The notes below the pieces were generated by a model that saw nothing but the letters and a program-made list of their open reading frames with translations, was not told the DNA's origin and did no database searches. Below, in pieces: positions 1 to 11,201 of a DNA stretch of 11,201 nucleotides (positions are counted from its first letter, which is position 1; the number at the start of each line of letters is the position of its first letter). Origin of the DNA: Planctomycetota bacterium (GTDB lineage: Bacteria; Planctomycetota; UBA11346); assembly GCA_043788625.1 (NCBI GenBank), contig JAYVTR010000281.1, positions 1 to 11,201 on the forward strand, written 5' to 3'. Both the position numbers and the translations under genes were made by a program.

Positions 1-504
1 ACCTGAACCATTACGTGCCAAATACGCGCCACACTCTATATTAGTTGACCCTGGACCCGCTGAAAAAAATCGAAGTTTTCTTGATAACCAAGCGGCCAAC
101 CTATTACGATAACCCGATAGAGCCCGAGCATCGATTACTGAAGGGCGAGCAATAGTGGTAACAAATTCTTCCACAGTATATTTTTGCCAAGCTGCAAATC
201 CCTCTATTGTATCAGATTTAATAAATCCCGTCGTTACCGATGATAACTTTGAAGAAATATCATCAAGCAATTGACACTGAAAATTTAGGTCTCCATTGCT
301 ACTCTGATAAAAACCGTCTTGTGGATAATCACTGGCGGGAATATTCCCCGCGGCTGAAGGCCAAGACCAAACAGAACCATTTGAAAATTCGTAGTACATT
401 TGTTGAGAGCCACGTTGTAGTCCCTCAATACCCAGATCTTCTGCTAATAGTTCAGAACCTAAAAGTGAGAGCAGTAAAAGAAAAATTAAGTTTTGCATGC
501 GCAT
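1..504 (-). CDS. Hypothetical secreted protein, N-terminal fragment. The ORF runs off the left edge of the window, so the C-terminus is not present. The likely start is MRMQNLIFLLLLSLLGSELLA (ATG at complement 504-502), or alternatively the ATG at complement 498-496.
   Basis: I reverse-complemented 1-504 by hand and found an open frame of 168 codons with no stop. It begins with a classic signal peptide: a positively charged n-region, a Leu-rich h-region and an A-E-D region. Upstream in frame there is a stop at complement 522-520. GC is about 41% against about 65% for the rest of the window. The product is not recognisable from sequence. The six-frame track omits this ORF because it is truncated at the edge. 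Confidence 0.5.
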   Translation of the reverse strand, partial: MRMQNLIFLLLLSLLGSELLAEDLGIEGLQRGSQQMYYEFSNGSVWSWPSAAGNIPASDYPQDGFYQSSNGDLNFQCQLLDDISSKLSSVTTGFIKSDTIEGFAAWQKYTVEEFVTTIARPSVIDARALSGYRNRLAAWLSRKLRFFSAGPGSTNIECGAYLARNGSG

Positions 505-917
505 TATATTATGTCTTTTTCAATATTTTTTTACGCACTTAGTCACATATTGTGAAATGCGGTAATGGGTTGATGGAGAAATTTACGATGTATTTGGTAA
601 CTGTCAATGCGATACGTCGGGAGTAGCTATTAAAAAAATAGGCTCATTCCCAGTCAAAATAGGAGGGGATTTTAGTTCTGAACGAAACCAGAAAAAATTG
701 AGATGACCACAAAGTATAAATTAAATATTTAATTTACTAGGCCTCGCACGACCTGATTCATGTTAAAAGCTCAAATTTATTGAGCATAATACATAATCAT
801 TGGGTTACTCCTACCAAAATAATGGACTGTCCACAAGGTCAAAAAAACATTATTGACGTTCATTTAATATAGCATCCCGTTCCACCTCACATACCCTCCC
901 CCGCCACGAGGTACCCG
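505..917. other. Very AT-rich non-coding segment, roughly 25-30% GC on sampled blocks. It marks the boundary between the low-GC segment and the high-GC core and presumably carries promoters for both flanking genes.
   Basis: This is the lowest-GC part of the window and has no ORF of 60 aa or more. A TTGACG hexamer sits at 853-858, with A/T-rich sequence (taatat, tatagc) downstream. A TATAAT or CATAAT -10-like hexamer lies 1-5 nt upstream of the minus-strand start codons at 504/498. Confidence 0.4.
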
Positions 918-2528
918 ATGGCCGTCATGCTTTTCTTCACCATGCTCGCAGTTGCCGCTTTGGCCGCCGCATGGATGGCGAATATTCCACGTTTGGCACG
1001 AGTGGCCTTGGTGGTGATGTCACCGGCTCTCTTAATTTTAGGCATGATCCTTGGCTCGTCCGTGGTGGTGCCCGCAGATCAGACCGGCGTCATCAATCGT
1101 TTATTCGGCTCGCCGCTGCCTTCTGGCGATATTGTCGCACGGCATGGTGAACAGGGTCCGCAGGCCGAGATCATCGGGCCGGGTTGGCATTTCGGGTATT
1201 TTCCTTTTCTGTATGAGATCGAACTGGCGCCGGTGGTGGTGATCGCACCCGGCAGCCTGGGCTTTGTCACCGCCCGCGATGGCAAGCCGCTGGGCGATAA
1301 TGAAACCTATGCGCCGGCTTGGGACAGTACCGCTGACATGCTCGACCCAGCGACCTTCCTCGCCAAGGGCGGCCATCGCGGACCGCAAACCACGGTGCTG
1401 ACACCCGGCACCTACCGCTACAATCCACGTCTGCATGAAATCAAAATGATCGAGGCGCTAAATGTGGCACCCGGCACCGTAGCCGTGATCAAGAGCAACA
1501 GCGGCTTGCTTGCTGAAAAAGCCAACGACACGGTACTGGTCAACGGCACGCCGTTAGTGGCCAATGGCAATCGCGGCATCTGGCGCACACCGTTGTCGCC
1601 CGGTGCCTATTACCTCAACAGCCAGGCTTTTCAGCCGACCCTGGTGAAGACGACGCAGAGAGTCTATGTCTATCAGCAGGGTGCGGTGCGCCAGCCAACG
1701 CAAAAGGCTGCGACCGGTGCTCAGGACTGGTCGGTGGTGGTGCGCAGCAAAGACGGCTTCAGTTTCCCGGTGGATGTGCGGGTGGGTTGCGCCGTCGAAT
1801 CGAAGGACGCGCCGTACCTGGTCGCCCTGCTCGGCGATCCCGACCAGATGGTGCGCGATGATCAGGAAGACGAACAGCTTGAGGTCCTCGAAGCCAAGGT
1901 CATCTTGCCAGCAGTGCGGGCGATTTTCCGCAATGTCGCCGAGACCATGAACGCCCTCGAGTTCGTCAATGCCCGCTCGACCATCGAAAAACAGGCAAGC
2001 CAACGGATGACCGAAGAGCTGGCCAAATTCCATGTCACCTGCGATGGTGTGTATGTCGGCAACATCCACCTCGATGTCAGCGAGGCCGGCAAGAAGCTGA
2101 TCTTGACCCAGACCGATCGTGAAGTCGCAGTCAATCAGCAGACTCTTTACAATGAACAGCGTAAAGCTGAAGAATCGCGCGCGGCATTAGTGAAAGCCGG
2201 CGAAGAAGCGGAGCAGCAACGCAACCTGGCGAAAGCCACCTATGAAGTGCTGGTCAAGGAGCAGGGCGCCAAAGCCCGTGGTGCCGAGGCCAAGGGCGAA
2301 GCCGAATACCAGACCATCACCGGCGAAGGTCGCGCCAAGGGCTATGATGCCATGGTGCGCGCCCTCGGCCGTGAGCAGGTGGCGCAATTGGAATTGCTCA
2401 AGCTCGTCGCCGAAGGCAAAGTGCAGATCACCCCGCAAGTCATGGTCACCGGCGGCGGCAATGGCTCGATGGATGCCCTCGCCGGAACTCTGCTTCGGCA
2501 ATCAGTCAGCCCAGGAACCAAGCCATGA
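918..2528 (+). CDS. Flotillin-like SPFH/band-7 family membrane protein (YqiK/FloT-like), 536 aa
   Basis: Two N-terminal hydrophobic segments are followed by an SPFH-like core (GVINRLFG...IIGPGWHFGYFPF...). The C-terminus has the Ala/Glu-rich coiled-coil typical of flotillins (EESRAALVKAGEEAEQQRNLAKATYEVLVKEQGAKARGAEAKGEAEY...). A GAGG Shine-Dalgarno at 908-911 sits 6 nt upstream of the ATG at 918. Confidence 0.85.
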   Translation: MAVMLFFTMLAVAALAAAWMANIPRLARVALVVMSPALLILGMILGSSVVVPADQTGVINRLFGSPLPSGDIVARHGEQGPQAEIIGPGWHFGYFPFLYEIELAPVVVIAPGSLGFVTARDGKPLGDNETYAPAWDSTADMLDPATFLAKGGHRGPQTTVLTPGTYRYNPRLHEIKMIEALNVAPGTVAVIKSNSGLLAEKANDTVLVNGTPLVANGNRGIWRTPLSPGAYYLNSQAFQPTLVKTTQRVYVYQQGAVRQPTQKAATGAQDWSVVVRSKDGFSFPVDVRVGCAVESKDAPYLVALLGDPDQMVRDDQEDEQLEVLEAKVILPAVRAIFRNVAETMNALEFVNARSTIEKQASQRMTEELAKFHVTCDGVYVGNIHLDVSEAGKKLILTQTDREVAVNQQTLYNEQRKAEESRAALVKAGEEAEQQRNLAKATYEVLVKEQGAKARGAEAKGEAEYQTITGEGRAKGYDAMVRALGREQVAQLELLKLVAEGKVQITPQVMVTGGGNGSMDALAGTLLRQSVSPGTKP

Positions 2529-2614
2529 AGCTGCTTTTGTTTATCACTCTGATCGTGGTGCTGGTGTGCCTTGGCGTGATCATCGGTGCTGTATTAGCTG
2601 GCCGCGGACGTTGA
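2525..2614 (+). CDS. Candidate 29-aa single-pass membrane micro-protein (MKLLLFITLIVVLVCLGVIIGAVLAGRGR). It is translationally coupled to the flotillin gene.
   Basis: The ATG at 2525 overlaps the flotillin TGA stop at 2526-2528 (ATGA). An AGGAA Shine-Dalgarno at 2513-2517 sits 7 nt upstream. The product is one hydrophobic helix with a C-terminal RGR tail. The track omits it because it is shorter than 60 aa. Confidence 0.4.
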   Translation: MKLLLFITLIVVLVCLGVIIGAVLAGRGR

Positions 2615-2618
2615 GGAT

Positions 2619-2737
2619 CTGAGCTTGAAGCTTGAAGCTTGAAGCTTGAAGCTTGAAGCTGGTGGCTGCGAGCTGCGAGCTGCGAGCTGCGAGCTGCGAG
2701 CTGCGAGCAACCAGCCACCAGTCACCAGTCACCAGTC
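2619..2737. repeat. Phase-continuous array of 17 heptanucleotide tandem units: CTGAGCT, (TGAAGCT)x5, GGTGGCT, (GCGAGCT)x5, GCGAGCA, ACCAGCC, (ACCAGTC)x3
   Basis: Read directly from the sequence. Every unit boundary falls on the same 7-nt phase from 2619 to 2737. The array fills the convergent intergenic space between the small-ORF stop (2612-2614) and the ygaP-like stop (2758-2760). Confidence 0.95.
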
Positions 2738-2757
2738 AAGTCACCTTTTCAATAAAA

Positions 2758-3282
2758 TCAGCGGTTCCACGGCATTTTGGCGATGAGCATGCCCATCATG
2801 CACGAATCCGTCAGCCCGGCGATGGTCAACCCGGTCCCGACCCCGCCTGACAAAGCGAACCAGTACGGATGCACGACGTAGCCAAGGCCAACGCCGATCA
2901 CCACCAACGTTCCAGCGGCGATGCGCACCTGCCGCTCAAGTGACATGATCGCCGCGCCGCGCACCACCGGCAGTCCGGCGGCTACCCATGCATCTGTTCC
3001 GCCCGTCACTATCACACTTGGACAACCGCAGTCAGCCAACTTGCTGGCCGCCATCGCAGCTCGGCCACCCGACTTGCACAGCAAATGAATGGTGCTGCCG
3101 GCCGGAGTACTCGCCGCCACCGACGCCGGATCAAAAACATCCAGCGGCATCAATACCGCACCGTCGGCATGCAGCGCCCGATATTCAGCTGGCGTCCGCA
3201 CATCGATCAGCCAGGCATCGCCGGCACTCTGCTGCGCCTGCGCTTCAGCAGCTGAACAGGTCGTGGGGGTGGTCATGGTCAT
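2758..3282 (-). CDS. ygaP: Membrane-anchored rhodanese-domain sulfurtransferase (YgaP family), 174 aa
   Basis: The N-terminal part is a rhodanese domain with the active-site loop LLCKSGGRAAMA. The C-terminal two-helix membrane anchor ends ...GYVVHPYWFALSGGVGTGLTIAGLTDSCMMGMLIAKMPWNR. This closely parallels E. coli YgaP (...LGYTV...[30 protein letters not shown]), and the length is the same. An AGGAG Shine-Dalgarno (complement of 3289-3293) sits 6 nt upstream. Confidence 0.88.
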   Translation of the reverse strand: MTMTTPTTCSAAEAQAQQSAGDAWLIDVRTPAEYRALHADGAVLMPLDVFDPASVAASTPAGSTIHLLCKSGGRAAMAASKLADCGCPSVIVTGGTDAWVAAGLPVVRGAAIMSLERQVRIAAGTLVVIGVGLGYVVHPYWFALSGGVGTGLTIAGLTDSCMMGMLIAKMPWNR

Positions 3283-3352
3283 GCTGACTCCTGTGCTCGC
3301 GGAGCATACTCGATAGTTGCAACGTAGCGATTGGCGTACCCCGGAGACCCTC

Positions 3353-4135
3353 TCAATCCCATCGCCAGCAGCTCATGGCCAGGACGTGCCAGGTCCAACT
3401 GTGATGCAATTGATGGACGCGGGGATTTTCATAAACGGGGTGTCCAACGCTGGCAGCTCCCATCGCCACCATGAGCGGCAAGAGATGTTCGTCGGTGGGA
3501 TGCACGCGACGGGCACTGGGCGCCTGTCGCCAAGCGCGCAAGGCCGCCAGGTCGTTGGCCTGCACGGCGTAACTCAACCAACTGTCGAAATCCGCCGCCC
3601 ACCGCGGCGGTTCGTCGTTGTCGTGGATCACCGCCGCCAGGGGATGCGTCGGCGCACCGCTGCCCACCACCATGATTCCCCGATCGCGCAGCGAGCCGAG
3701 CACCGCCCCCAGGCGCAGGTGCTCATCGACACCTCCGCAGGTGAGCGACACCGGCACCACCGGAATGTCAGCACCGGGCCATGCCAAGGAGAGTGGGACC
3801 CACGCCCCATGATCGAGTCCACGATTGGCAGCATGCGCCGGCATGCCATTGGCTTCGAGCAGTTCGACGATCTCCTGCGCTAAGCCTGGATTACCCGGCG
3901 CGGGCCACTGCATGTGTGAAACTTCTGGCGGGAATCCGTCAAAATCGTGAATCGTCTGATTGATGGCCTGCATGCCCACGTGGACTTCTGTCTCACGCCA
4001 ATGTGCCGACACGACCACAATGGCGGTCGGACGCGGCACCAGTTGCGCCAAACCCAGCAGAAACGCATGTGCCGGCACCGGCTCAATGACCAGCGATGGC
4101 GCACCATGCGCGAGGAAAAGGACAGGGGCAATCAT
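3353..4135 (-). CDS. ygiD: Class III extradiol ring-cleavage dioxygenase, LigB/DODA family (YgiD-like 4,5-DOPA dioxygenase), about 260 aa. The track's longer ORF starts at 4168.
   Basis: Conserved blocks match E. coli YgiD: PVLFLAHGAP, PRPTAIVVVSAHW, TIHDFDGFP, WPAPGNPGLAQEIVELL, DHGAWVPL, WPGADIPVVPVS and LRDRGIMVVGSGA. I prefer the start at 4135 (MIAPVLFLAHG) because a GGGAG Shine-Dalgarno (complement of 4142-4146) sits 6 nt upstream and it matches the homolog N-terminus. The ATG at 4168 has no Shine-Dalgarno. Confidence 0.88.
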   Translation of the reverse strand: MIAPVLFLAHGAPSLVIEPVPAHAFLLGLAQLVPRPTAIVVVSAHWRETEVHVGMQAINQTIHDFDGFPPEVSHMQWPAPGNPGLAQEIVELLEANGMPAHAANRGLDHGAWVPLSLAWPGADIPVVPVSLTCGGVDEHLRLGAVLGSLRDRGIMVVGSGAPTHPLAAVIHDNDEPPRWAADFDSWLSYAVQANDLAALRAWRQAPSARRVHPTDEHLLPLMVAMGAASVGHPVYENPRVHQLHHSWTWHVLAMSCWRWD

Positions 4136-4220
4136 GGGCGACTCCCGTAGATGCAGAGGGCATCTCACGTCCTCAGCCTAGCAGGCGGGAAGCCGACTGC
4201 GACTGCTGCGAGCCCAGACG

Positions 4221-4252
4221 GGGTTGAGCTGGAACCAGGTTCAGCTCAACCC
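4221..4252. other. Near-perfect palindrome / stem-loop: gggttgagctg-gaaccaggtt-cagctcaaccc. The stem is 11 bp (extendable to about 13) with a 6-10 nt loop. There is no flanking T/U-tract on either strand.
   Basis: I paired 4221-4231 with 4242-4252 by hand. It lies in the 121-bp spacer between the hydrolase stop (4257-4259) and the ygiD-like start (4135) on the same strand. Confidence 0.6.
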
Positions 4253-4256
4253 AAGT

Positions 4257-5171
4257 TCAGCCAAGGACCCGTTCTAAGTACCAGCCAATGGCCCGATCAC
4301 GGTCGACATCCCAAGCAATGCGATGTGGTCCGCGCTCATCGGCGTGAAATTGGGTATAGCCATAGGTTGACTGTCCCTGGAGTTCCACCGTCACCAGGCC
4401 CTGCCGCCAGGTACATAAGTCGGGCTGCATCATGGTCGCCACGGCTAATGGATCGAACAGCGAAGGCATCGGTTCATAACCGGGCTTGCGCTGCGCGTCT
4501 TTCCAGGCGTGGACTGCGCGATGCAGATATTGCACCACGGGCAGCGGACTCTGCGCCATGCGCTCAAGGTCAGCGGTGTGGAATTTGGCTTCGTTGCCGA
4601 TGTGCCAGGGCGTCACATCGATGGGGATGCCACTGGCAAAAACGTGATGCGCGGCCTCGGGGTCACAGCGTATATTCCATTCCGCGAACGGGTGGCGGAA
4701 TTCGCCAGCCATGGCGACGATCCTTGGAATCTTGGCGATGATGCGTGGCTCTTTGATCAGCGCCATGGCCATGTTGGTCAGGCCACCGATGGTGATGGGG
4801 ATGATATCACCAGCCCCGGCCATGATCGTTTCAATCAGGAAATCGACGCCATGCCGCGGATCAGTCGCCGGTAGCTGAGCCGCGGGCAGACAGGTGCCGT
4901 CTTGGTTGGGCAGTTTATCCAGCGCGGCGACATCGCGTGCGAACTTGCGTGAGGCCATGGTCGCTCCGCAACCGGTCGCTACCGGTACTTCCGGCCGGCC
5001 GGCGATGACCAACTCGGTGAGCGCCTGGCGGCTGCGCGCCGGCGTATTGCCGAATACCGTAGTTACGCCGACCAGGTCGAGTTCAGAGCTGGCACAGATG
5101 AGGGCCAAGGCGAGGGCATCATCGATATCGTCGCCGATATCGGTATCGAGAATGACTTTTTGCAACTTCAT
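4257..5171 (-). CDS. Ribonucleoside hydrolase, inosine-uridine-preferring (IUNH/Rih family), 304 aa
   Basis: The N-terminal DTDIGDDIDDALAL (DXDXXXDD) motif coordinates Ca2+ and ribose, and the overall length and fold signature match Rih/IUNH proteins. An AGGAA Shine-Dalgarno (complement of 5177-5181) sits 6 nt upstream of the ATG at 5171. Confidence 0.9.
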   Translation of the reverse strand: MKLQKVILDTDIGDDIDDALALALICASSELDLVGVTTVFGNTPARSRQALTELVIAGRPEVPVATGCGATMASRKFARDVAALDKLPNQDGTCLPAAQLPATDPRHGVDFLIETIMAGAGDIIPITIGGLTNMAMALIKEPRIIAKIPRIVAMAGEFRHPFAEWNIRCDPEAAHHVFASGIPIDVTPWHIGNEAKFHTADLERMAQSPLPVVQYLHRAVHAWKDAQRKPGYEPMPSLFDPLAVATMMQPDLCTWRQGLVTVELQGQSTYGYTQFHADERGPHRIAWDVDRDRAIGWYLERVLG

Positions 5172-5270
5172 GGCGGATTCCTGAGGGGAGTGCGAACGAT
5201 GGATGCAGCCTAACCGCTGCTATGCCTCGGCGCTAGGAACAGAACAATGGCTGGCTAGCATGAAACGCTG
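5172..5270. promoter_or_regulatory. Divergent 99-bp intergenic region between the hydrolase operon (minus) and the AraC-family regulator (plus). It presumably holds divergent promoters and operator sites.
   Basis: Position only. I could not call individual -35/-10 hexamers or regulator half-sites with confidence. Confidence 0.35.
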
Positions 5271-6038
5271 ATGATCCGACCAGTCCTTGCCCCCCTGCCC
5301 ACGCTCAATTTCGCTGGGCGCTATCATGGGTCACGGGGGGTCGAGATGCATCAGCACCTGGGGCTGGAAATAGTTTTGGTTACCCGGGGCAGCTGCGCAG
5401 TACACGTGGGTGCGGTCACTTTGCGCGCCACCACCGGTGAAGCCTTCGTGCTGCCCGCCAATAAGCCCCACAATCAACTCGATGAGGGGACGGTCGACAC
5501 TGTCTACGCCAATTTCGACCTGCGTCTCGGTGATTTCCCTAGTGAACCGCGGGTGCTGGCCATGCCCGTCGATGGGCTGGCAGCGGGTTGGCTGGGACAG
5601 TTGGCAGATCTGCAGACCCAACCCCTACCGCCAACCGTGCGCAGCGGCCTGGCGTTGGCGCTGATCGACACGCTGGCGCAGGGAGAGCACCATCGTGCTC
5701 GCCAACGCATGCTCCATCCCGGACTGGTCAAAGCCATGCAACGTATCGAGAGCGATCATCTGGAGGATCTCACGGTCAATGACTTGGCCCGCGCGGCCGA
5801 ACTCAGTCCGAGCCATCTCACCGCCTTGTTCCGCCAGCACGTTGGTTGTGCGCCACTGGCCTATGCCCAACGTCAGCGCCTGGAGCTGGCCGCCCGCCTG
5901 CTGCGTAACGCCTACCTGTCGATCGCTGAAGTCGCCGATGCCTGCGGCTATGCCGATGCCAACTATTTTTCACGGCTCTTTCGCCAGACCCACCACTGTT
6001 CGCCGAGTGCGTGGCGCAATCAGGCAGGCGCCGTATGA
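5271..6038 (+). CDS. AraC/XylS-family transcriptional regulator: an N-terminal cupin-type sensing domain plus a C-terminal double HTH. It is 255 aa from 5271; an alternative start at 5346 is possible.
   Basis: The C-terminal signature is LARAAELSPSHLTALFRQHVGCAPLAYAQRQRLELAARLL...IAEVADACGYADANYFSRLFRQTHHCSPSAWR. The N-terminal region has H-x-H (EMHQHLGLEIVLV), typical of cupins. The ATG at 5346 is preceded by GGGGGG plus 5 nt and could be the true start. Confidence 0.9.
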   Translation: MIRPVLAPLPTLNFAGRYHGSRGVEMHQHLGLEIVLVTRGSCAVHVGAVTLRATTGEAFVLPANKPHNQLDEGTVDTVYANFDLRLGDFPSEPRVLAMPVDGLAAGWLGQLADLQTQPLPPTVRSGLALALIDTLAQGEHHRARQRMLHPGLVKAMQRIESDHLEDLTVNDLARAAELSPSHLTALFRQHVGCAPLAYAQRQRLELAARLLRNAYLSIAEVADACGYADANYFSRLFRQTHHCSPSAWRNQAGAV

Positions 6039-8914
6039 ATACTCAATCAGCAGCGGTCGCTGATTATTTTCAATCCCTGGCGAAAACCACCTTCAGTGGT
6101 GACGTCACTGCCAGTGAAGCCGCCCGCTTTGCCGTGGCCACCGACAATAGCATCTATCAGGTGCTGCCGGCTGGTGTCGTGCATCCGCGCTCGACCGCTG
6201 ATGTCGCCGCCCTGCTGCGCACCGCCCGTGCCCATCCGACGATCCGTCTGTGTTCGCGCGGTGGTGGCACCAGCACCAATGGCCAGTGCCTGACCCACGG
6301 GCTGGTCATCGATCACAGCCGTCATCACGATGCACTGCTGAACCTCGATGTCGCCGCCCGGTTGGTGACGGTGGCGCCGGGGATGGTGCTGGACACCTTG
6401 AACCGCCATGTGCTTGGACATGGACTGCAAGTCGCGCCGACACTGTCGACGTCTTCACGCGCCACCATCGGCGGCATGGTCAGCACCGACGCCGCCGGCA
6501 AGGGCTCGCGCGTTTATGGAAAAACCTCGGAGCACATTGAGGCTTTGGAAGTGGTCTTGGCCGATGGCACGGTGTGGACCTCACGGGCCATGAACGCTGC
6601 TGAATTCGCCTGGGAGAGCGAGCGATCCGACAGCGTCGGACAGCTTTTACGCGACGTCATGGCGGTCGTCGACGCCAATCGCGCGGCGGTGGCCGAACGT
6701 TTTCCGCGTCTGCGGCGCTTTCTCGCCGGCTATAATCTGGCACGGGTGCGTCAGGATGACGGCCGCATCAATTTCAATTGGCTGTTGGCCGGCGCCGAGG
6801 GCACCCTGGCGGTGATCACTGCTATCACCTTGCGCCTGATTCCCATCCCCGCCGCCAAACGCCTGGTGGTGCTGCGCTATGCGACCTTTGCCGCGGCATT
6901 GGCCGAAGCACAAACCTTGATCACCCGCCAACCGCAGGCGATCGAGACCATCGATGAACTGGTCGTCAACCTGGCCAGCCAGTCGCCCCTGTGGGCGCGC
7001 GTCGGACACCTGTTGCCCGCTGGCAGCGGCCCGTTGAACCTGGTGCAGTTCGTCGGTGATGACGCTGCACAGCTGGCGGTGGTGGCGGCGGACCTGGGTG
7101 GCGTGCAGTTGACTGCCAGCAGTGACATCGCCGCCTGTTGGGATCTGCGCAAAGCCGGCGTCGGCTTGCTTGGCAAGCTGCCCGGTGCGCGCAAGCCGGT
7201 GCCGTTCATCGAGGACACCGTGGTGCCACCCGAACACCTCGCCGCCTACGTCGTTGAGCTGCGTGCTCTGCTCGACAGCCATGGTTTGCGTTATGGCATG
7301 TTCGGCCACGTCGATGTCGGTTGTCTGCATGTGCGCCCGGCCCTCGATCTGACTGATCCGCATGATGTCGCCAAGATCCGTCCGCTCAGCGATGCGGTGG
7401 CAGCGCTGACGCTCAAATACGGCGGTTTATTGTGGGGCGAACACGGCAAAGGTTTTCGTGGTGAATATCTGCCGTTGTTTGTCGGCGATACCCTGCACCA
7501 CGCTTTCCGGCAGATCAAAAGCGCTTTCGACCGCGGAAACCAGCTGAATCCTGGCAAGCTGGTCGCCCCCTGCGGTTGCGATGAACACCCGCCGGCACTT
7601 GACGCGGTGCCGCTACGCGGACAGGCCGACGCACAGATTTCGCTAGCCATGCGTACGGCTTGGGCTTCAGCGGTAAGCTGCAATGGCAATGGAGCCTGCC
7701 ATGCACCTGATCCACACGTGGTGATGTGCCCGTCGAGCAAGATCACCAAGGATCGCATCCATACGCCAAAGGGTCGTGCTGATCTGGTACGCGAGTGGCT
7801 GCGGCGCCTGCAACTTGCCGGCGATTCGGCGCTGATGGTACCGGCGGGCGTGGGTTGGCGGTCACCGCATAACGATGACGCTTTTACCCATGAGGTGAAA
7901 GCGGCTCTTGATGGCTGCCTGGCGTGCAAGGCGTGCAGCGGCACCTGTCCAGTGCAGGTCGATGTACCGGATTTGAAGGCGCGCTTTCTCGCCCATTACC
8001 ATGGCCGTTACGCCCGACCGCTGCGTGATTGGGCGATGGCGGCACTCGAGACCCTCGCCCCGCTGGCGGCACGCCTGCCGCGGCTGGCCAATGCCCTGCC
8101 GACACCGCGAGGCCTGGTGGATCTACCGCGCTTCAGTTCGCCGCCACTGTGGCAACGGCGGCCACCCGGCCTGGCATCACTGGCCGAGGCGCACGTGGTG
8201 CTGGTGCCGGATGTATTTACCGCCTGCTTTGATGCTGACAGCGTCACGGCCGCAATCACCTTGCTGGCTGCGTTGGGCTGGCGCGTGCACCTGGCGCCAC
8301 TGGTCGCCAACGGCAAGCCGCTGCACGTGCTGGGCATGCTGCATGGCTGGCGGCGCACCGCCACGGCGTGGCGCGCGCACCTCGAGCGCTTGGCTGCCAG
8401 CGGCAAACCGTTGCTGGCCCTGGAACCGGCAGTGGCCTTGACCGAGCGCGATGAACTACGCAAGGCGGGGTTGGCCGATGCACCACATCTGCAGCTGATG
8501 AGCGAGTTCCTCGCCGCACGCTTTGCCCAGCAACGCGTGCCGCGGGCCCTACCGCCGAGCCCTAAACGCAACGTCCACCTCTTGGCCCACTGCACCGAAC
8601 AAGCCACCGCACCGGCGGCGGCGCAGGCGTGGGTGGCGGTCTTCAGAGCCTGCGGCCATCACTTGACCGTGGTCCCCAGCGGCTGCTGCGGCATGGCCGG
8701 GGCATGGGGGCATTGCGTCGAAAACGTCGCTGCATCGCGGGCGCTGTTCGACTTATCATGGCGACCCCGTCTGGAGCAGGCCGATGCCATTGGCGCGCTC
8801 GTGGTGGCCGATGGTTTTTCATGCCGCCATCAGGCCGCCCGGGTTGCCGGCCGGCAATTGTTGGATCCGGCAGCGACGCTGTTGGCACTTGGCTTCGCCG
8901 ATGGCGGACATTGA
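6035..8914 (+). CDS. FAD-linked oxidase (GlcD/PCMH-type FAD-binding domain) fused to 4Fe-4S ferredoxin-type and cysteine-rich CCG domains. This is the YdiJ/GlpC-like architecture of a putative D-2-hydroxyacid dehydrogenase, about 959 aa.
   Basis: There is an N-terminal FAD-binding block (...RLCSRGGGTSTNGQ...ATIGGMVSTDAAG...), a mid-protein CLACKACSGTCP (CxxCxxCxxxCP) cluster motif plus a second degenerate Cys cluster (SCNGNGACHAP...MCPSS), and C-terminal CCG-like segments (TACFDADSV..., ...SGCCGMAGAWG). I chose the start at ATG 6035 because it overlaps the AraC TGA stop (6036-6038) as ATGA. The track's GTG at 6011 lies inside the AraC coding sequence and has no Shine-Dalgarno. Confidence 0.85.
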   Translation: MNTQSAAVADYFQSLAKTTFSGDVTASEAARFAVATDNSIYQVLPAGVVHPRSTADVAALLRTARAHPTIRLCSRGGGTSTNGQCLTHGLVIDHSRHHDALLNLDVAARLVTVAPGMVLDTLNRHVLGHGLQVAPTLSTSSRATIGGMVSTDAAGKGSRVYGKTSEHIEALEVVLADGTVWTSRAMNAAEFAWESERSDSVGQLLRDVMAVVDANRAAVAERFPRLRRFLAGYNLARVRQDDGRINFNWLLAGAEGTLAVITAITLRLIPIPAAKRLVVLRYATFAAALAEAQTLITRQPQAIETIDELVVNLASQSPLWARVGHLLPAGSGPLNLVQFVGDDAAQLAVVAADLGGVQLTASSDIAACWDLRKAGVGLLGKLPGARKPVPFIEDTVVPPEHLAAYVVELRALLDSHGLRYGMFGHVDVGCLHVRPALDLTDPHDVAKIRPLSDAVAALTLKYGGLLWGEHGKGFRGEYLPLFVGDTLHHAFRQIKSAFDRGNQLNPGKLVAPCGCDEHPPALDAVPLRGQADAQISLAMRTAWASAVSCNGNGACHAPDPHVVMCPSSKITKDRIHTPKGRADLVREWLRRLQLAGDSALMVPAGVGWRSPHNDDAFTHEVKAALDGCLACKACSGTCPVQVDVPDLKARFLAHYHGRYARPLRDWAMAALETLAPLAARLPRLANALPTPRGLVDLPRFSSPPLWQRRPPGLASLAEAHVVLVPDVFTACFDADSVTAAITLLAALGWRVHLAPLVANGKPLHVLGMLHGWRRTATAWRAHLERLAASGKPLLALEPAVALTERDELRKAGLADAPHLQLMSEFLAARFAQQRVPRALPPSPKRNVHLLAHCTEQATAPAAAQAWVAVFRACGHHLTVVPSGCCGMAGAWGHCVENVAASRALFDLSWRPRLEQADAIGALVVADGFSCRHQAARVAGRQLLDPAATLLALGFADGGH

Positions 8915-9083
8915 TCCCGTACGCCCTCGACTTTCACTATCATTAATAAAGTAGTAGTTTAAATCCTCACCGTGGTCGACGATTCGAGGCGCTGTCTGCG
9001 GACGTCTTATAGAAACCGTAGAAGTCATAATGATATGATTTCATTGGCACACTGTTCGCAATGACCTGCCTTAGGAGCCGACC
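8915..9083 (+). promoter_or_regulatory. clpB upstream region. It is relatively AT-rich and carries an AGGAG ribosome-binding site at 9073-9077. The promoter hexamers are not confidently identified.
   Basis: AGGAG sits 6 nt upstream of the ATG at 9084. There is a small CATTG-N12-CAATG inverted repeat at 9044-9065 and a CTTATAG motif near 9006-9012. I found no clean sigma-32 CTTGAA...CCCCAT match. Confidence 0.4.
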
Positions 9084-11201
9084 ATGCTGGACCCAAAATT
9101 GTTTACTGAAAAGACCCGCGAAGCCGTCAGCGCTGCCCACCAGGCGGCGGTCGAGCGTGGTCATGCGCGCATCGAGCCGCTGCATCTGCTCTTGGCCCTG
9201 ACCAGCGATAGCAATGGCCTGGGAGCCCGACTGCTGAGTAAGGCCGGAGCGCCACCGTTGGTCTTGGATAAAGCGCTGGCAGATCTACCGCGCCAGACGC
9301 CGGCCCCCGAACAGGTGCAACCATCGCCCGAGACGCTCAAGGTACTCAATGCCGCCGATGCCGAACGGAAAAACCGTGGCGACTCGCATCTGGCTAGCGA
9401 GAGCCTGCTGTTGGCCTTGCTCGACGACAAAGTCTGCGCGCGCTTGATGGGGGTGACCAAGAAGGCGCTCACCACCGCCGTCGATGAGGTGCGCCAAGGG
9501 CGCAAGGTCGACAGTGATCAGGCTGAAAACCGTTATGAAGCCTTGGAAAAATACGGCCGTGATTTGGTCGCCGCCGCCAAGGAAGGCAAACTTGATCCGG
9601 TGATCGGGCGCGACGAAGAAATCCGTCGCGTGGTGCAGGTGCTTTCACGCCGTACCAAAAATAACCCGGTGCTGATCGGCGAACCCGGCGTCGGCAAAAC
9701 TGCCATCGTCGAAGGCCTCGCCCGCCGCATCGTTGCCGGCGATGTGCCTGAAGGCCTCAAGCATCGACGCATCATCAGCCTCGATCTGGGCGCGCTGGTC
9801 GCTGGTGCAAAATACCGCGGCGAATTTGAGGAACGTCTCAAAGGCGTGCTCGATGAAGTGAAAAGCGCCAACGGCTCGATCATTCTGTTCATCGACGAGA
9901 TGCATCAGTTGCTGGGCGCCGGCAAGACCGATGGCGCCATGGACGCCGCCAATCTGCTCAAGCCGATGCTGGCACGTGGCGAACTGCACTGCATCGGCGC
10001 CACCACTCTCGACGAATACCGCAAGCACGTTGAAAAAGACGCGGCTTTCGAACGCCGTTTCCAACCGGTGCAAGTCGGCGAGCCATCGGTTGAAGACACG
10101 GTTTCTATTCTGCGTGGCCTCAAAGAACGCTATGAAGCGCACCATGGTGTGCGTATTGCCGATGCCGCACTCGTAGCGGCCGCGCGCCTATCGAGCCGTT
10201 ATATCCAAGGGCGCTTTTTGCCCGACAAAGCCATCGACCTGGTTGACGAAGCCTGCGCCAAGACCCGCGTGCAGCTCGATTCGCAGCCCGAAGCCATCGA
10301 CGCCCTGCAACGCCGCAAGCTGCAGCTCGACGTCGAAGCCACCGCGCTCAACACCGAAGAGGACGCCGGCTCGCGTGAACGTCTGGCAGTGGTGCGCGCG
10401 GAAGTGGCTCAGGTGCAAGAACAGCTCACCGGCCTCACCGCCCGCTATCAGGCGGAAAAGGCCGAGGTCGACCGCCTGCAGAGCTTGCGCAAGCAACTCG
10501 AACAGGCGCGCACCGAAATGGCCGAAGCTGAACGTACCTACAATCTCGGGAAAGTAGCCGAGCTGAAATACGGACGCATTCCCGAGCTTGAAAAACAGCT
10601 CGCCGAACCGGGCTCGGGCGTGTACGCCATTGAGCGCCTGGTCGGTGAAACCGTCGGCGCCGAACAGATCGCGCAGATTGTTGCGCGCTGGACGGGCATC
10701 CCGGCCGAACGCCTGAGCGAAGGTGACCGCACCCGACTGCTGGCCCTTGCCGAGCGCCTGCACCAGCGGGTGGTCGGGCAGGATGATGCGGTCGAGGCAG
10801 TGGCCAATGCCGTGCTGCGTTCGCGTTCTGGCCTGGGCGATCCGCAGCAGCCGCAGGGCTCGTTCTTGTTCCTTGGACCGACCGGCGTCGGCAAGACCGA
10901 ATTGGCCAAGGCGCTGGCCGCCGAACTGTTCGACGATGAACGCAAGATGGTGCGCATCGACATGTCGGAATACATGGAGCCGCACAGCGTCTCGCGGCTG
11001 ATCGGCGCGCCTCCGGGCTATGTCGGCTATGACGAGGGCGGCCAGTTGACCGAGGCGGTGCGTCGGGCGCCTTATACGGTGGTGCTGTTGGATGAGGTCG
11101 AAAAGGCGCATCCGCAGGTGTGGAATACTTTCCTCCAAGTGCTGGATGAAGGCCGTCTCACCGACGGCCAGGGACGCACCGTCGATTTCCGCAATACCGT
11201 C
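9084..11201 (+). CDS. clpB: ClpB disaggregase chaperone (Hsp100 AAA+), N-terminal 706 codons. It is truncated at the window edge.
   Basis: There is an N-domain, then NBD1 with Walker A ([15 protein letters not shown]) and Walker B ([10 protein letters not shown]). The coiled-coil middle domain follows (...[10 protein letters not shown]...[21 protein letters not shown]...). NBD2 has [18 protein letters not shown], the [22 protein letters not shown] block and Walker [12 protein letters not shown]. The middle domain distinguishes ClpB from ClpA. Confidence 0.97.

Follow-up and report, generated by a model that had tools for sequence, protein, structure and literature searches.

INTRODUCTION

What is the AT-rich block at the left end of a Planctomycetota contig, where did it come from, and what does the truncated gene in it encode? 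We analysed 11,201 nucleotides from a Planctomycetota bacterium (GTDB lineage Bacteria; Planctomycetota; UBA11346; GenBank assembly GCA_043788625.1, contig JAYVTR010000281.1, positions 1 to 11,201 of the forward strand); in what follows, the window means this whole stretch. Its first roughly 900 bp carry the 5′ part of a minus-strand gene for a secreted protein, and end just upstream of a plus-strand gene for an SPFH/Band_7 protein. An earlier note on this DNA had taken the block for acquired DNA encoding a secreted protein of no recognizable family, abutting a flotillin gene whose NfeD partner gene it might have displaced. We find that window 1–504 is probably the 5′ end of a gene, acquired horizontally, whose product would be a large protein of the RHS/YD-repeat polymorphic-toxin type, exported by Sec.

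Proteins combining a signal peptide with RHS repeats make up the Sec/type II secretion system (T2SS) class of polymorphic toxins (Zhang et al. 2012, PMC3482391, Table 1). Each subfamily of Rhs proteins has N-terminal domains of its own, and parts of these proteins are atypical in composition (Jackson et al. 2009, PMC2935791). At face value the event described here is an ordinary one, the lateral acquisition of an RHS-type toxin gene in a variable chromosome region, and the kind of system is well known. What is new is an uncatalogued N-terminal domain, a partner gene that accompanies it at most family loci, and the extreme composition.

RESULTS

The block ends at a compositional and synteny boundary

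GC content is 0.413 for positions 1–504, 0.332 for 505–880, 0.363 for 505–917 and 0.620 for 918–11201. In the 1–504 fragment GC by codon position is 0.49/0.46/0.28, and the third-position value (GC3) of 0.28 compares with 0.69–0.72 in all six other window genes. The tetranucleotide profile of 1–900 correlates with that of the rest of the window at r = −0.30, against +0.73 to +0.94 for other 900-bp chunks. On these three contrasts the low-GC segment reported in the earlier note is real, and the tetranucleotide and codon-usage checks proposed there both come out deviant. Its figure of about 41% GC for the coding part is exact. The 25–30% that it gave for the spacer fits local 40-bp windows, which fall to 23–28%, and not the mean of 33%; the rest of the window is GC-rich as described, but 65% was slightly high (62.0%).

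Maximum-likelihood change-point analysis of the first 3 kb of the window puts the GC step at base 871 (support interval 867–894 at 2 log units; log-likelihood gain 61). A step does exist near the predicted 880–900, with its best estimate slightly further left, and it lies not right at the Shine-Dalgarno sequence of the downstream gene, as had been thought, but ∼40 bp upstream of that GAGG (908–911). DNA homology to relatives begins at window position 869 in a blastn alignment with L002 and at 904 with L003, both freshwater Planctomycetota metagenome-assembled genomes (MAGs), and nothing further left is alignable. Since the onset in L002 coincides with the GC change point, the compositional boundary is also a synteny boundary. 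Synteny comparison shows the AT-rich segment to be missing upstream of the SPFH orthologue in all seven relatives, and none of the seven has low GC there, with the caveat that each has a different upstream neighbour (Table 1). The junction is a clean one: within ∼25 bp GC3 climbs from 0.28 to 0.70, the change lies 47 bp before the native start codon, and the native leader is left intact.

The junction is almost certainly real. Two Logan contigs, from runs SRR22198267 (2651 bp) and SRR23617268 (2112 bp), were found by exact-protein look-up and match window 1–2651 and 1–2112 with 100% identity across the junction. Logan contigs are built from de Bruijn graphs and are not scaffolded. The junction holds no repeat and no shared sequence that could have mediated a false join.

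The window and the contigs of both runs (L001, L025 and L026) have the same left end, window base 1, in codon 168 of the RHS-type gene. The same end base in all three points to a systematic assembly break and not to a random coverage drop-out; we infer a branch in the assembly graph, with leftward sequence that is repeated or polymorphic in the population. Exact-protein look-ups returned only contigs ending at window base 1, and the leftward continuation was in none of the searched collections (protein databases, exhaustive HMMER, JGI metagenome contigs).

The gene, its leader and the spacer

The open reading frame (ORF) from 504 to 1 on the minus strand has 168 codons, a GC content of 0.41 and no stop within the window; one in 20,000 shuffles of its DNA keeps the frame open. 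It yields the 168-aa peptide quoted before, from a gene that runs off the window as stated and certainly continues leftward past base 1. The protein starts with a basic n-region and a hydrophobic core at residues 5–16 (Kyte-Doolittle up to 2.97), followed by LLA|ED. This agrees with the Sec signal peptide described earlier, as judged by a heuristic of hydropathy and composition, and an equivalent hydrophobic leader precedes the conserved domain in every member of the family described below.

No ORF of more than 30 aa lies wholly inside the spacer at 505–868. A plus-strand ORF at 240–542 (100 aa), which overlaps its left edge only, lies antisense to the gene that homology supports and is dismissed as spurious. 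A consensus scan of promoters gave four sites, against 2.7 ± 1.9 expected; the site at 580–607, 76 nt upstream of the ATG at 504, is thus listed in Table 1 as a candidate only.

A rare N-terminal domain family

Neither Pfam nor NCBIfam has a model that matches the 168-aa fragment, and both a word-indexed protein search with the fragment as single-sequence query and a PDB profile search were empty. Exhaustive phmmer (HMMER) comparison with 1.84 billion representatives gave eight matches. Four (P0001–P0003 and P0005) are giant or repetitive proteins (Cache, Big_13, coiled-coil repeat) that match by summed weak stretches, and were discarded as artefacts; the other four are small proteins with a signal peptide and a clear common motif. 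Profile searches collected 11 proteins from a 5.8-billion-sequence database and 13 metagenome loci, and a wider profile added few further members. None of the members is named or has a curated domain, and all come from metagenomes.

A profile hidden Markov model (HMM) from which the window sequence was left out aligns with residues 8–116 of the fragment and gives 49.6 bits (E 2e-17 for one target), where none of 2000 shuffles exceeds 4.9 bits. The protein had been called unplaceable. That holds for Pfam, NCBIfam and the word-indexed and PDB searches, but the exhaustive and profile searches put it in a rare RHS/YD-repeat family, and on this alignment there is hardly any doubt that the fragment belongs there. 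The conserved domain is ∼90 aa long and follows the signal peptide. Its motif is [IV]E..QR..Q.(R)Y...G....WP......PA..[YF]P.DGFY......L..D. and the family consensus reads [IV]E..QR.FQ.RY...G.Y..WP.C...TPAP.FP.DGFYGDL...D....LVQDL..KFY. The invariant columns E27, R31, W48, A57, P61, F65 and Y66 are all kept in the window copy. An AlphaFold2 model of the fragment shows a small helical domain (predicted local distance difference test score 66 overall, 73–89 over residues 21–90). The domain is best read, from its sequence relatives, as a clade-specific N-terminal module of a new RHS subfamily.

Longer homologues are RHS proteins

The Pfam model RHS_repeat (PF05593) matches L021 with 82 bits, L023 with 70 bits and L012, a contig-limited protein of >1217 aa, with 45 bits. 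The match is marginal for P0010 with its continuation in L011 (22 bits, equal to the cutoff) and falls below the Pfam cutoff in L020 (>1162 aa; 18 bits); L009, after frameshifts, reads on into YD-like sequence. Wherever a relative's downstream sequence extends to 1.1 kb or more, RHS repeats are present.

Two members are complete, L021 with 2227 aa and L023 with 2336 aa; the L021 locus belongs to a contig of 115 kb. Both contain the Rhs_assc_core (TIGR03696; 71.5 and 70.9 bits, cutoff 32.5) and the YD repeat (TIGR01643), and their sequences share 45% identity over the stretch that begins in the N-terminal region and closes with the core (...RDPI..GG.N.Y....IDFLGL). After the core, their tails, of 248 aa in L021 and 181 aa in L023, are mutually unrelated and match no Pfam or NCBIfam model. 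No toxin or immunity family already described was recognized, and the tails are candidates for new toxin domains. A 148-aa ORF directly downstream of the L021 RHS gene (L021:16651–17097) is, by its position, a candidate immunity gene. As judged from these matches, the layout of the homologues is the defining layout of RHS polymorphic toxins, and this architecture makes the window gene a probable RHS polymorphic toxin gene. That it continues into a full RHS protein appears likely, and we hold this with good confidence.

A partner gene precedes most family members

At L009, L010, L012/L013, L014, L017, L019, L020, L021, L023 and L024 a partner gene lies on the same strand, 20–40 bp before the RHS gene. 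The partner genes are mutually homologous, their products have 600–1160 aa, thrombospondin-type-3-like Ca-binding repeats and a near-invariant C-terminus, ...GLQVFTPLK, and Pfam and NCBIfam find no other family in them. The coupling suggests, from gene order and conservation, a two-component secreted complex. The partner is absent from L011 and L016. About 113 kb of the loci of the window's relatives contain neither family members nor partner genes. Weak tblastn matches of RHS homologues at window 9483–9815 fall inside ClpB and were dismissed as chance.

A more ambitious reading makes the fragment part of an undescribed two-component secreted RHS system, so far seen only in metagenomes, and the window's copy a partner-less, AT-rich allele of recent transfer with a variation hotspot downstream. 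The partner and an RHS protein with the helical N-terminal domain would be co-expressed, the C-terminus of the one might dock with the N-terminal domain of the other for export, surface display or delivery, and the downstream part would be a hotspot of recombination or variation, hence the assembly breaks at one base. We rate this whole construction as doubtful.

Origin of the block

The GC of homologue genes is close to that of their contigs, so the family is not intrinsically AT-rich; and a GC3 of 0.28 in a genome at 0.70 suggests that the block came in recently from a low-GC donor. We regard the block as very likely foreign. The earlier proposal of a horizontally acquired secreted protein is supported by the deviant composition, the absence of the segment in seven relatives and an N-terminus that is secreted (by hydropathy) and of the RHS family. 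Phage, plasmid and viral-contig collections gave no match to the protein, to the DNA or to the family profile. Of the boundary marks to be looked for in the larger, leftward island that the earlier note proposed, the window contains none: no tRNA gene, no integrase or transposase and no flanking direct repeats. Rfam found nothing near a family threshold in the window; a chance-level snoRNA match (E 0.85) is disregarded.

The acquired RHS-type gene that we favour would run ∼6 kb leftward, through RHS repeats, to a C-terminal toxin and its cognate immunity gene. Its AT-rich promoter region (505–868) would have come along with it and been set against the intact 50-bp leader of the native SPFH gene. 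The protein would leave the cell via Sec, with the N-terminal domain serving as a subfamily-specific delivery or anchoring module; as in the established model of such toxins, the RHS shell would encapsulate the toxin, and self-cleavage at the core motif would then free it against competitors. Assemblies would stop at base 1 because the sequence to the left repeats among paralogues or varies in the population.

Alternative explanations

Several observations weigh against this. The RHS repeats, core and toxin of the window gene itself lie outside the window and are absent from the searched collections, so that its RHS identity derives from N-terminal homology at just 24–38% identity. Among the members, the window copy diverges most: it does not have the conserved Cys after WP (column C51), the near-invariant G67 is Q, and the near-invariant R36 is also replaced. 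Its 413 bp of upstream sequence are non-coding and hold no tblastn trace of a partner gene, and given this absence the copy could be rearranged, orphan or decaying. As to origin, the homologues all come from contigs of 47–63% GC, their gene GC departing from these values by a few percent, and the analysis turned up no plausible low-GC donor lineage; the block shows its right-hand boundary only, and neither a mobility gene nor a tRNA or repeat lies there. Finally, both sequencing runs are perhaps from one site or study, so their independence is unproven, and a literature search for either run found no paper.

Divergence, the lost Cys and the missing partner would all suit a short or truncated relic, be it a stand-alone small secreted protein or the orphaned N-terminal piece of a former RHS gene; many database relatives are likewise short (108–313 aa), and dissociated fragments are known to build up at rhs loci (PMC2935791). 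We nevertheless consider a relic unlikely: all 168 codons stay open in 41%-GC DNA, the frame is still running when the contig ends, and most of the short relatives owe their length to contig ends or frameshifts (L009 goes on to YD-like sequence in another frame), whereas repeats appear wherever enough downstream sequence exists. Much less probable is an ancestral AT-rich locus of the lineage in place of a recent acquisition, its GC perhaps kept low by selection, for example through promoter or regulatory needs of a surface-protein gene. N-terminal regions of some homologues do dip in GC relative to their contigs (L015 0.52/0.59, L024 0.58/0.63, L010 0.57/0.63), and with a different upstream neighbour in every relative, absence of the segment is weak evidence on ancestry. 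The fall in GC3 goes far beyond these dips of a few percent, however, the spacer is equally deviant, the boundary is where conserved synteny ends, and relatives at 93% amino acid identity lack the segment. Least credible of all is an assembly chimera, a misjoin of an unrelated low-GC contig to a Planctomycetota contig at ∼870. The very sharp and very large step, its position near a contig end, the metagenome source and the lack of the low-GC gene in any other public sequence among the collections searched are what such a misjoin would give, but the separately assembled contigs of two runs agree base for base across the junction, those contigs are unscaffolded, and nothing at the junction could have mediated a false join.

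Relation to known systems

The acquired RHS-type gene compares most directly with Sec/T2SS RHS toxins such as Bacillus subtilis WapA. It shares with them a signal peptide followed by a lineage-specific N-terminal module, and its full-length homologues add RHS/YD repeats, an Rhs core ending in a DPxG...GL-type motif, non-homologous C-terminal tails and a small downstream ORF in the immunity position. It differs in that its N-terminal domain matches no catalogued leader (MafB-N, MicroscillaN, APD1/2, PAAR, SpvB or wall-binding repeats), and in that its own RHS part lies beyond the window. Like enterobacterial Rhs elements (PMC2935791), it is atypical in composition for its host genome and tied to rearrangement and variable genome regions. 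In Escherichia coli Rhs the core is G+C-rich and the C-terminal extension A+T-rich (PMC2935791), whereas in the window the 5′ end and promoter region are AT-rich; the host is moreover a planctomycete, and no VgrG, PAAR or type VI secretion system context is visible in the window. An RHS gene placed 20–40 bp after a large partner, as at most family loci, recalls the TcB/TcC of Tc toxins and other two-gene RHS-cocoon systems, but the family partner has no similarity to TcA, TcB or SpvB, and the window copy has no partner.

A rare subfamily, of ∼20–30 sequences among billions and with no Pfam or NCBIfam model, is here tied to a taxonomically placeable genome, having been seen earlier only on unassigned metagenome contigs. 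The closest relatives of that genome are freshwater Planctomycetota MAGs, and the secreted weaponry of the phylum has been little studied. The conserved partner with its invariant C-terminus hints that Sec-dependent RHS proteins may be delivered or anchored in a new way.

Native neighbourhood

Outside the block, the window carries ordinary chromosomal genes whose composition is native (Table 1). Flotillin had been the label given to the first of them. Assignment to SPFH/Band_7 stands, through a Pfam match over residues 242–387, but flotillin itself is not shown; NCBIfam offers no model for the protein, and PDB no relative by sequence. Its N-terminal part contains two hydrophobic segments, and its C-terminal part an EA-rich coiled coil. 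By sequence it is a divergent member from the Planctomycetota-Verrucomicrobiota-Chlamydiota (PVC) clade, found in Planctomycetota and Verrucomicrobiota MAGs: its orthologues have 93, 93 and 89% amino acid identity in the freshwater Planctomycetota MAGs L002, L003 and L006, 58–64% in three Verrucomicrobiota MAGs and 36% in one uncultured bacterium.

Table 1. Positions of features in the window and at related loci (window coordinates unless a locus is named)
Feature	Position	Strand	Basis or remark
5′ part of secreted-protein gene, N-terminus of probable RHS/YD-repeat protein	1..504	−	Translation, ORF statistics, family homology
Predicted Sec-type signal peptide, MRMQNLIFLLLLSLLGSELLA / ED, codons 1–21	442..504	−	Hydropathy and composition
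Conserved N-terminal domain, codons ∼24–116	157..435	−	Leave-out profile HMM, alignment, AlphaFold2 model
AT-rich (33% GC) non-coding spacer of the very likely foreign block, likely promoter region of the minus-strand gene	505..868	none	GC, ORF scan
Candidate promoter-like TTGACA-16-TAAATT (10/12)	580..607	−	Consensus scan
Junction of very likely foreign with native DNA	867..894 (best 871)	none	Change point, blastn to L002, multiple alignment
SPFH leader, native, intact	869..917	+	ATAGCATC box 869–876; CCACGAGGTA 903–912; GAGG 908–911
SPFH/Band_7 protein, 536 aa, membrane-anchored	918..2528	+	Pfam Band_7 E 2e-12; GC3 0.70
Rhodanese/YgaP	2758–3282	−	
LigB-type dioxygenase, inosine-uridine nucleoside hydrolase, AraC-family regulator	within 3353–6038		Native GC
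AraC-family regulator	5271–6038		
FAD/FeS oxidase	6011–8914		Longest ORF, GTG at 6011
ClpB	∼9084 to past 11201		
Complete RHS gene, L021	L021:9965–16645		Pfam/TIGR matches
Complete RHS gene, L023	L023:7448–14455		Pfam/TIGR matches
Partner genes, examples	L017:1116–4118; L020:1152–4628; L023:4287–7418	as RHS gene	Co-directional with RHS gene
Neighbour upstream of SPFH orthologue	L002		TPR (tetratricopeptide repeat) protein
Neighbour upstream of SPFH orthologue	L003		5′ end of 16S rRNA gene
Neighbour upstream of SPFH orthologue	L004		Threonyl-tRNA synthetase (ThrRS)
Neighbour upstream of SPFH orthologue	L005		ABC-F ATPase
Neighbour upstream of SPFH orthologue	L006		HisF and small membrane protein
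Neighbour upstream of SPFH orthologue	L007		DUF7133-cytochrome c protein
Neighbour upstream of SPFH orthologue	L008		Beta-helix protein

In the multiple alignment the SPFH gene has a conserved leader, ATAGCATC ... CCACGAGGTAnCCGATG, which the window shares with L002 and L003 and partly with L006. The relatives' own sequences part from one another at the same point, ∼50 bp upstream of the ATG; to judge by this alignment, the site is a general synteny breakpoint and not a clean insertion into a conserved operon. The leader is a possible core promoter or regulatory element marking a recurrent rearrangement boundary. Directly upstream of the ATAGCATC box, L002 has three tandem 17-bp units (GATCCACTTCTAGAAGA) at ∼9890–9950. 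The L003 contig ends, ∼490 bp before the SPFH orthologue, in reverse-complemented sequence from the 5′ end of 16S rRNA (L003:1–95; AGAGTTTGATCCTGGCTCAG...), an orientation from which the rRNA operon diverges from the SPFH gene there.

A membrane-anchored SPFH/Band_7 (flotillin/stomatin) protein as native neighbour recalls NfeD-SPFH operons, and displacement of an NfeD partner by the insertion had been suggested. This is not what the loci show: neither the window nor any of the seven relatives, whose upstream genes differ, has an NfeD gene beside the SPFH gene, and the idea of a displaced NfeD is rejected as unsupported. The finding has no bearing on flotillin-NfeD biology.

Further downstream, the rhodanese and FAD/FeS oxidase genes are just ∼400 bp apart in L002, against an interval in the window that includes 3353–6038, so the LigB, nucleoside hydrolase and AraC segment is a three-gene indel. 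Read as its longest ORF, the FAD/FeS oxidase gene shares 28 bp with the end of the AraC gene, and the Logan gene call for this oxidase has 959 aa in place of 967; its true start is probably eight codons downstream of the GTG at 6011.

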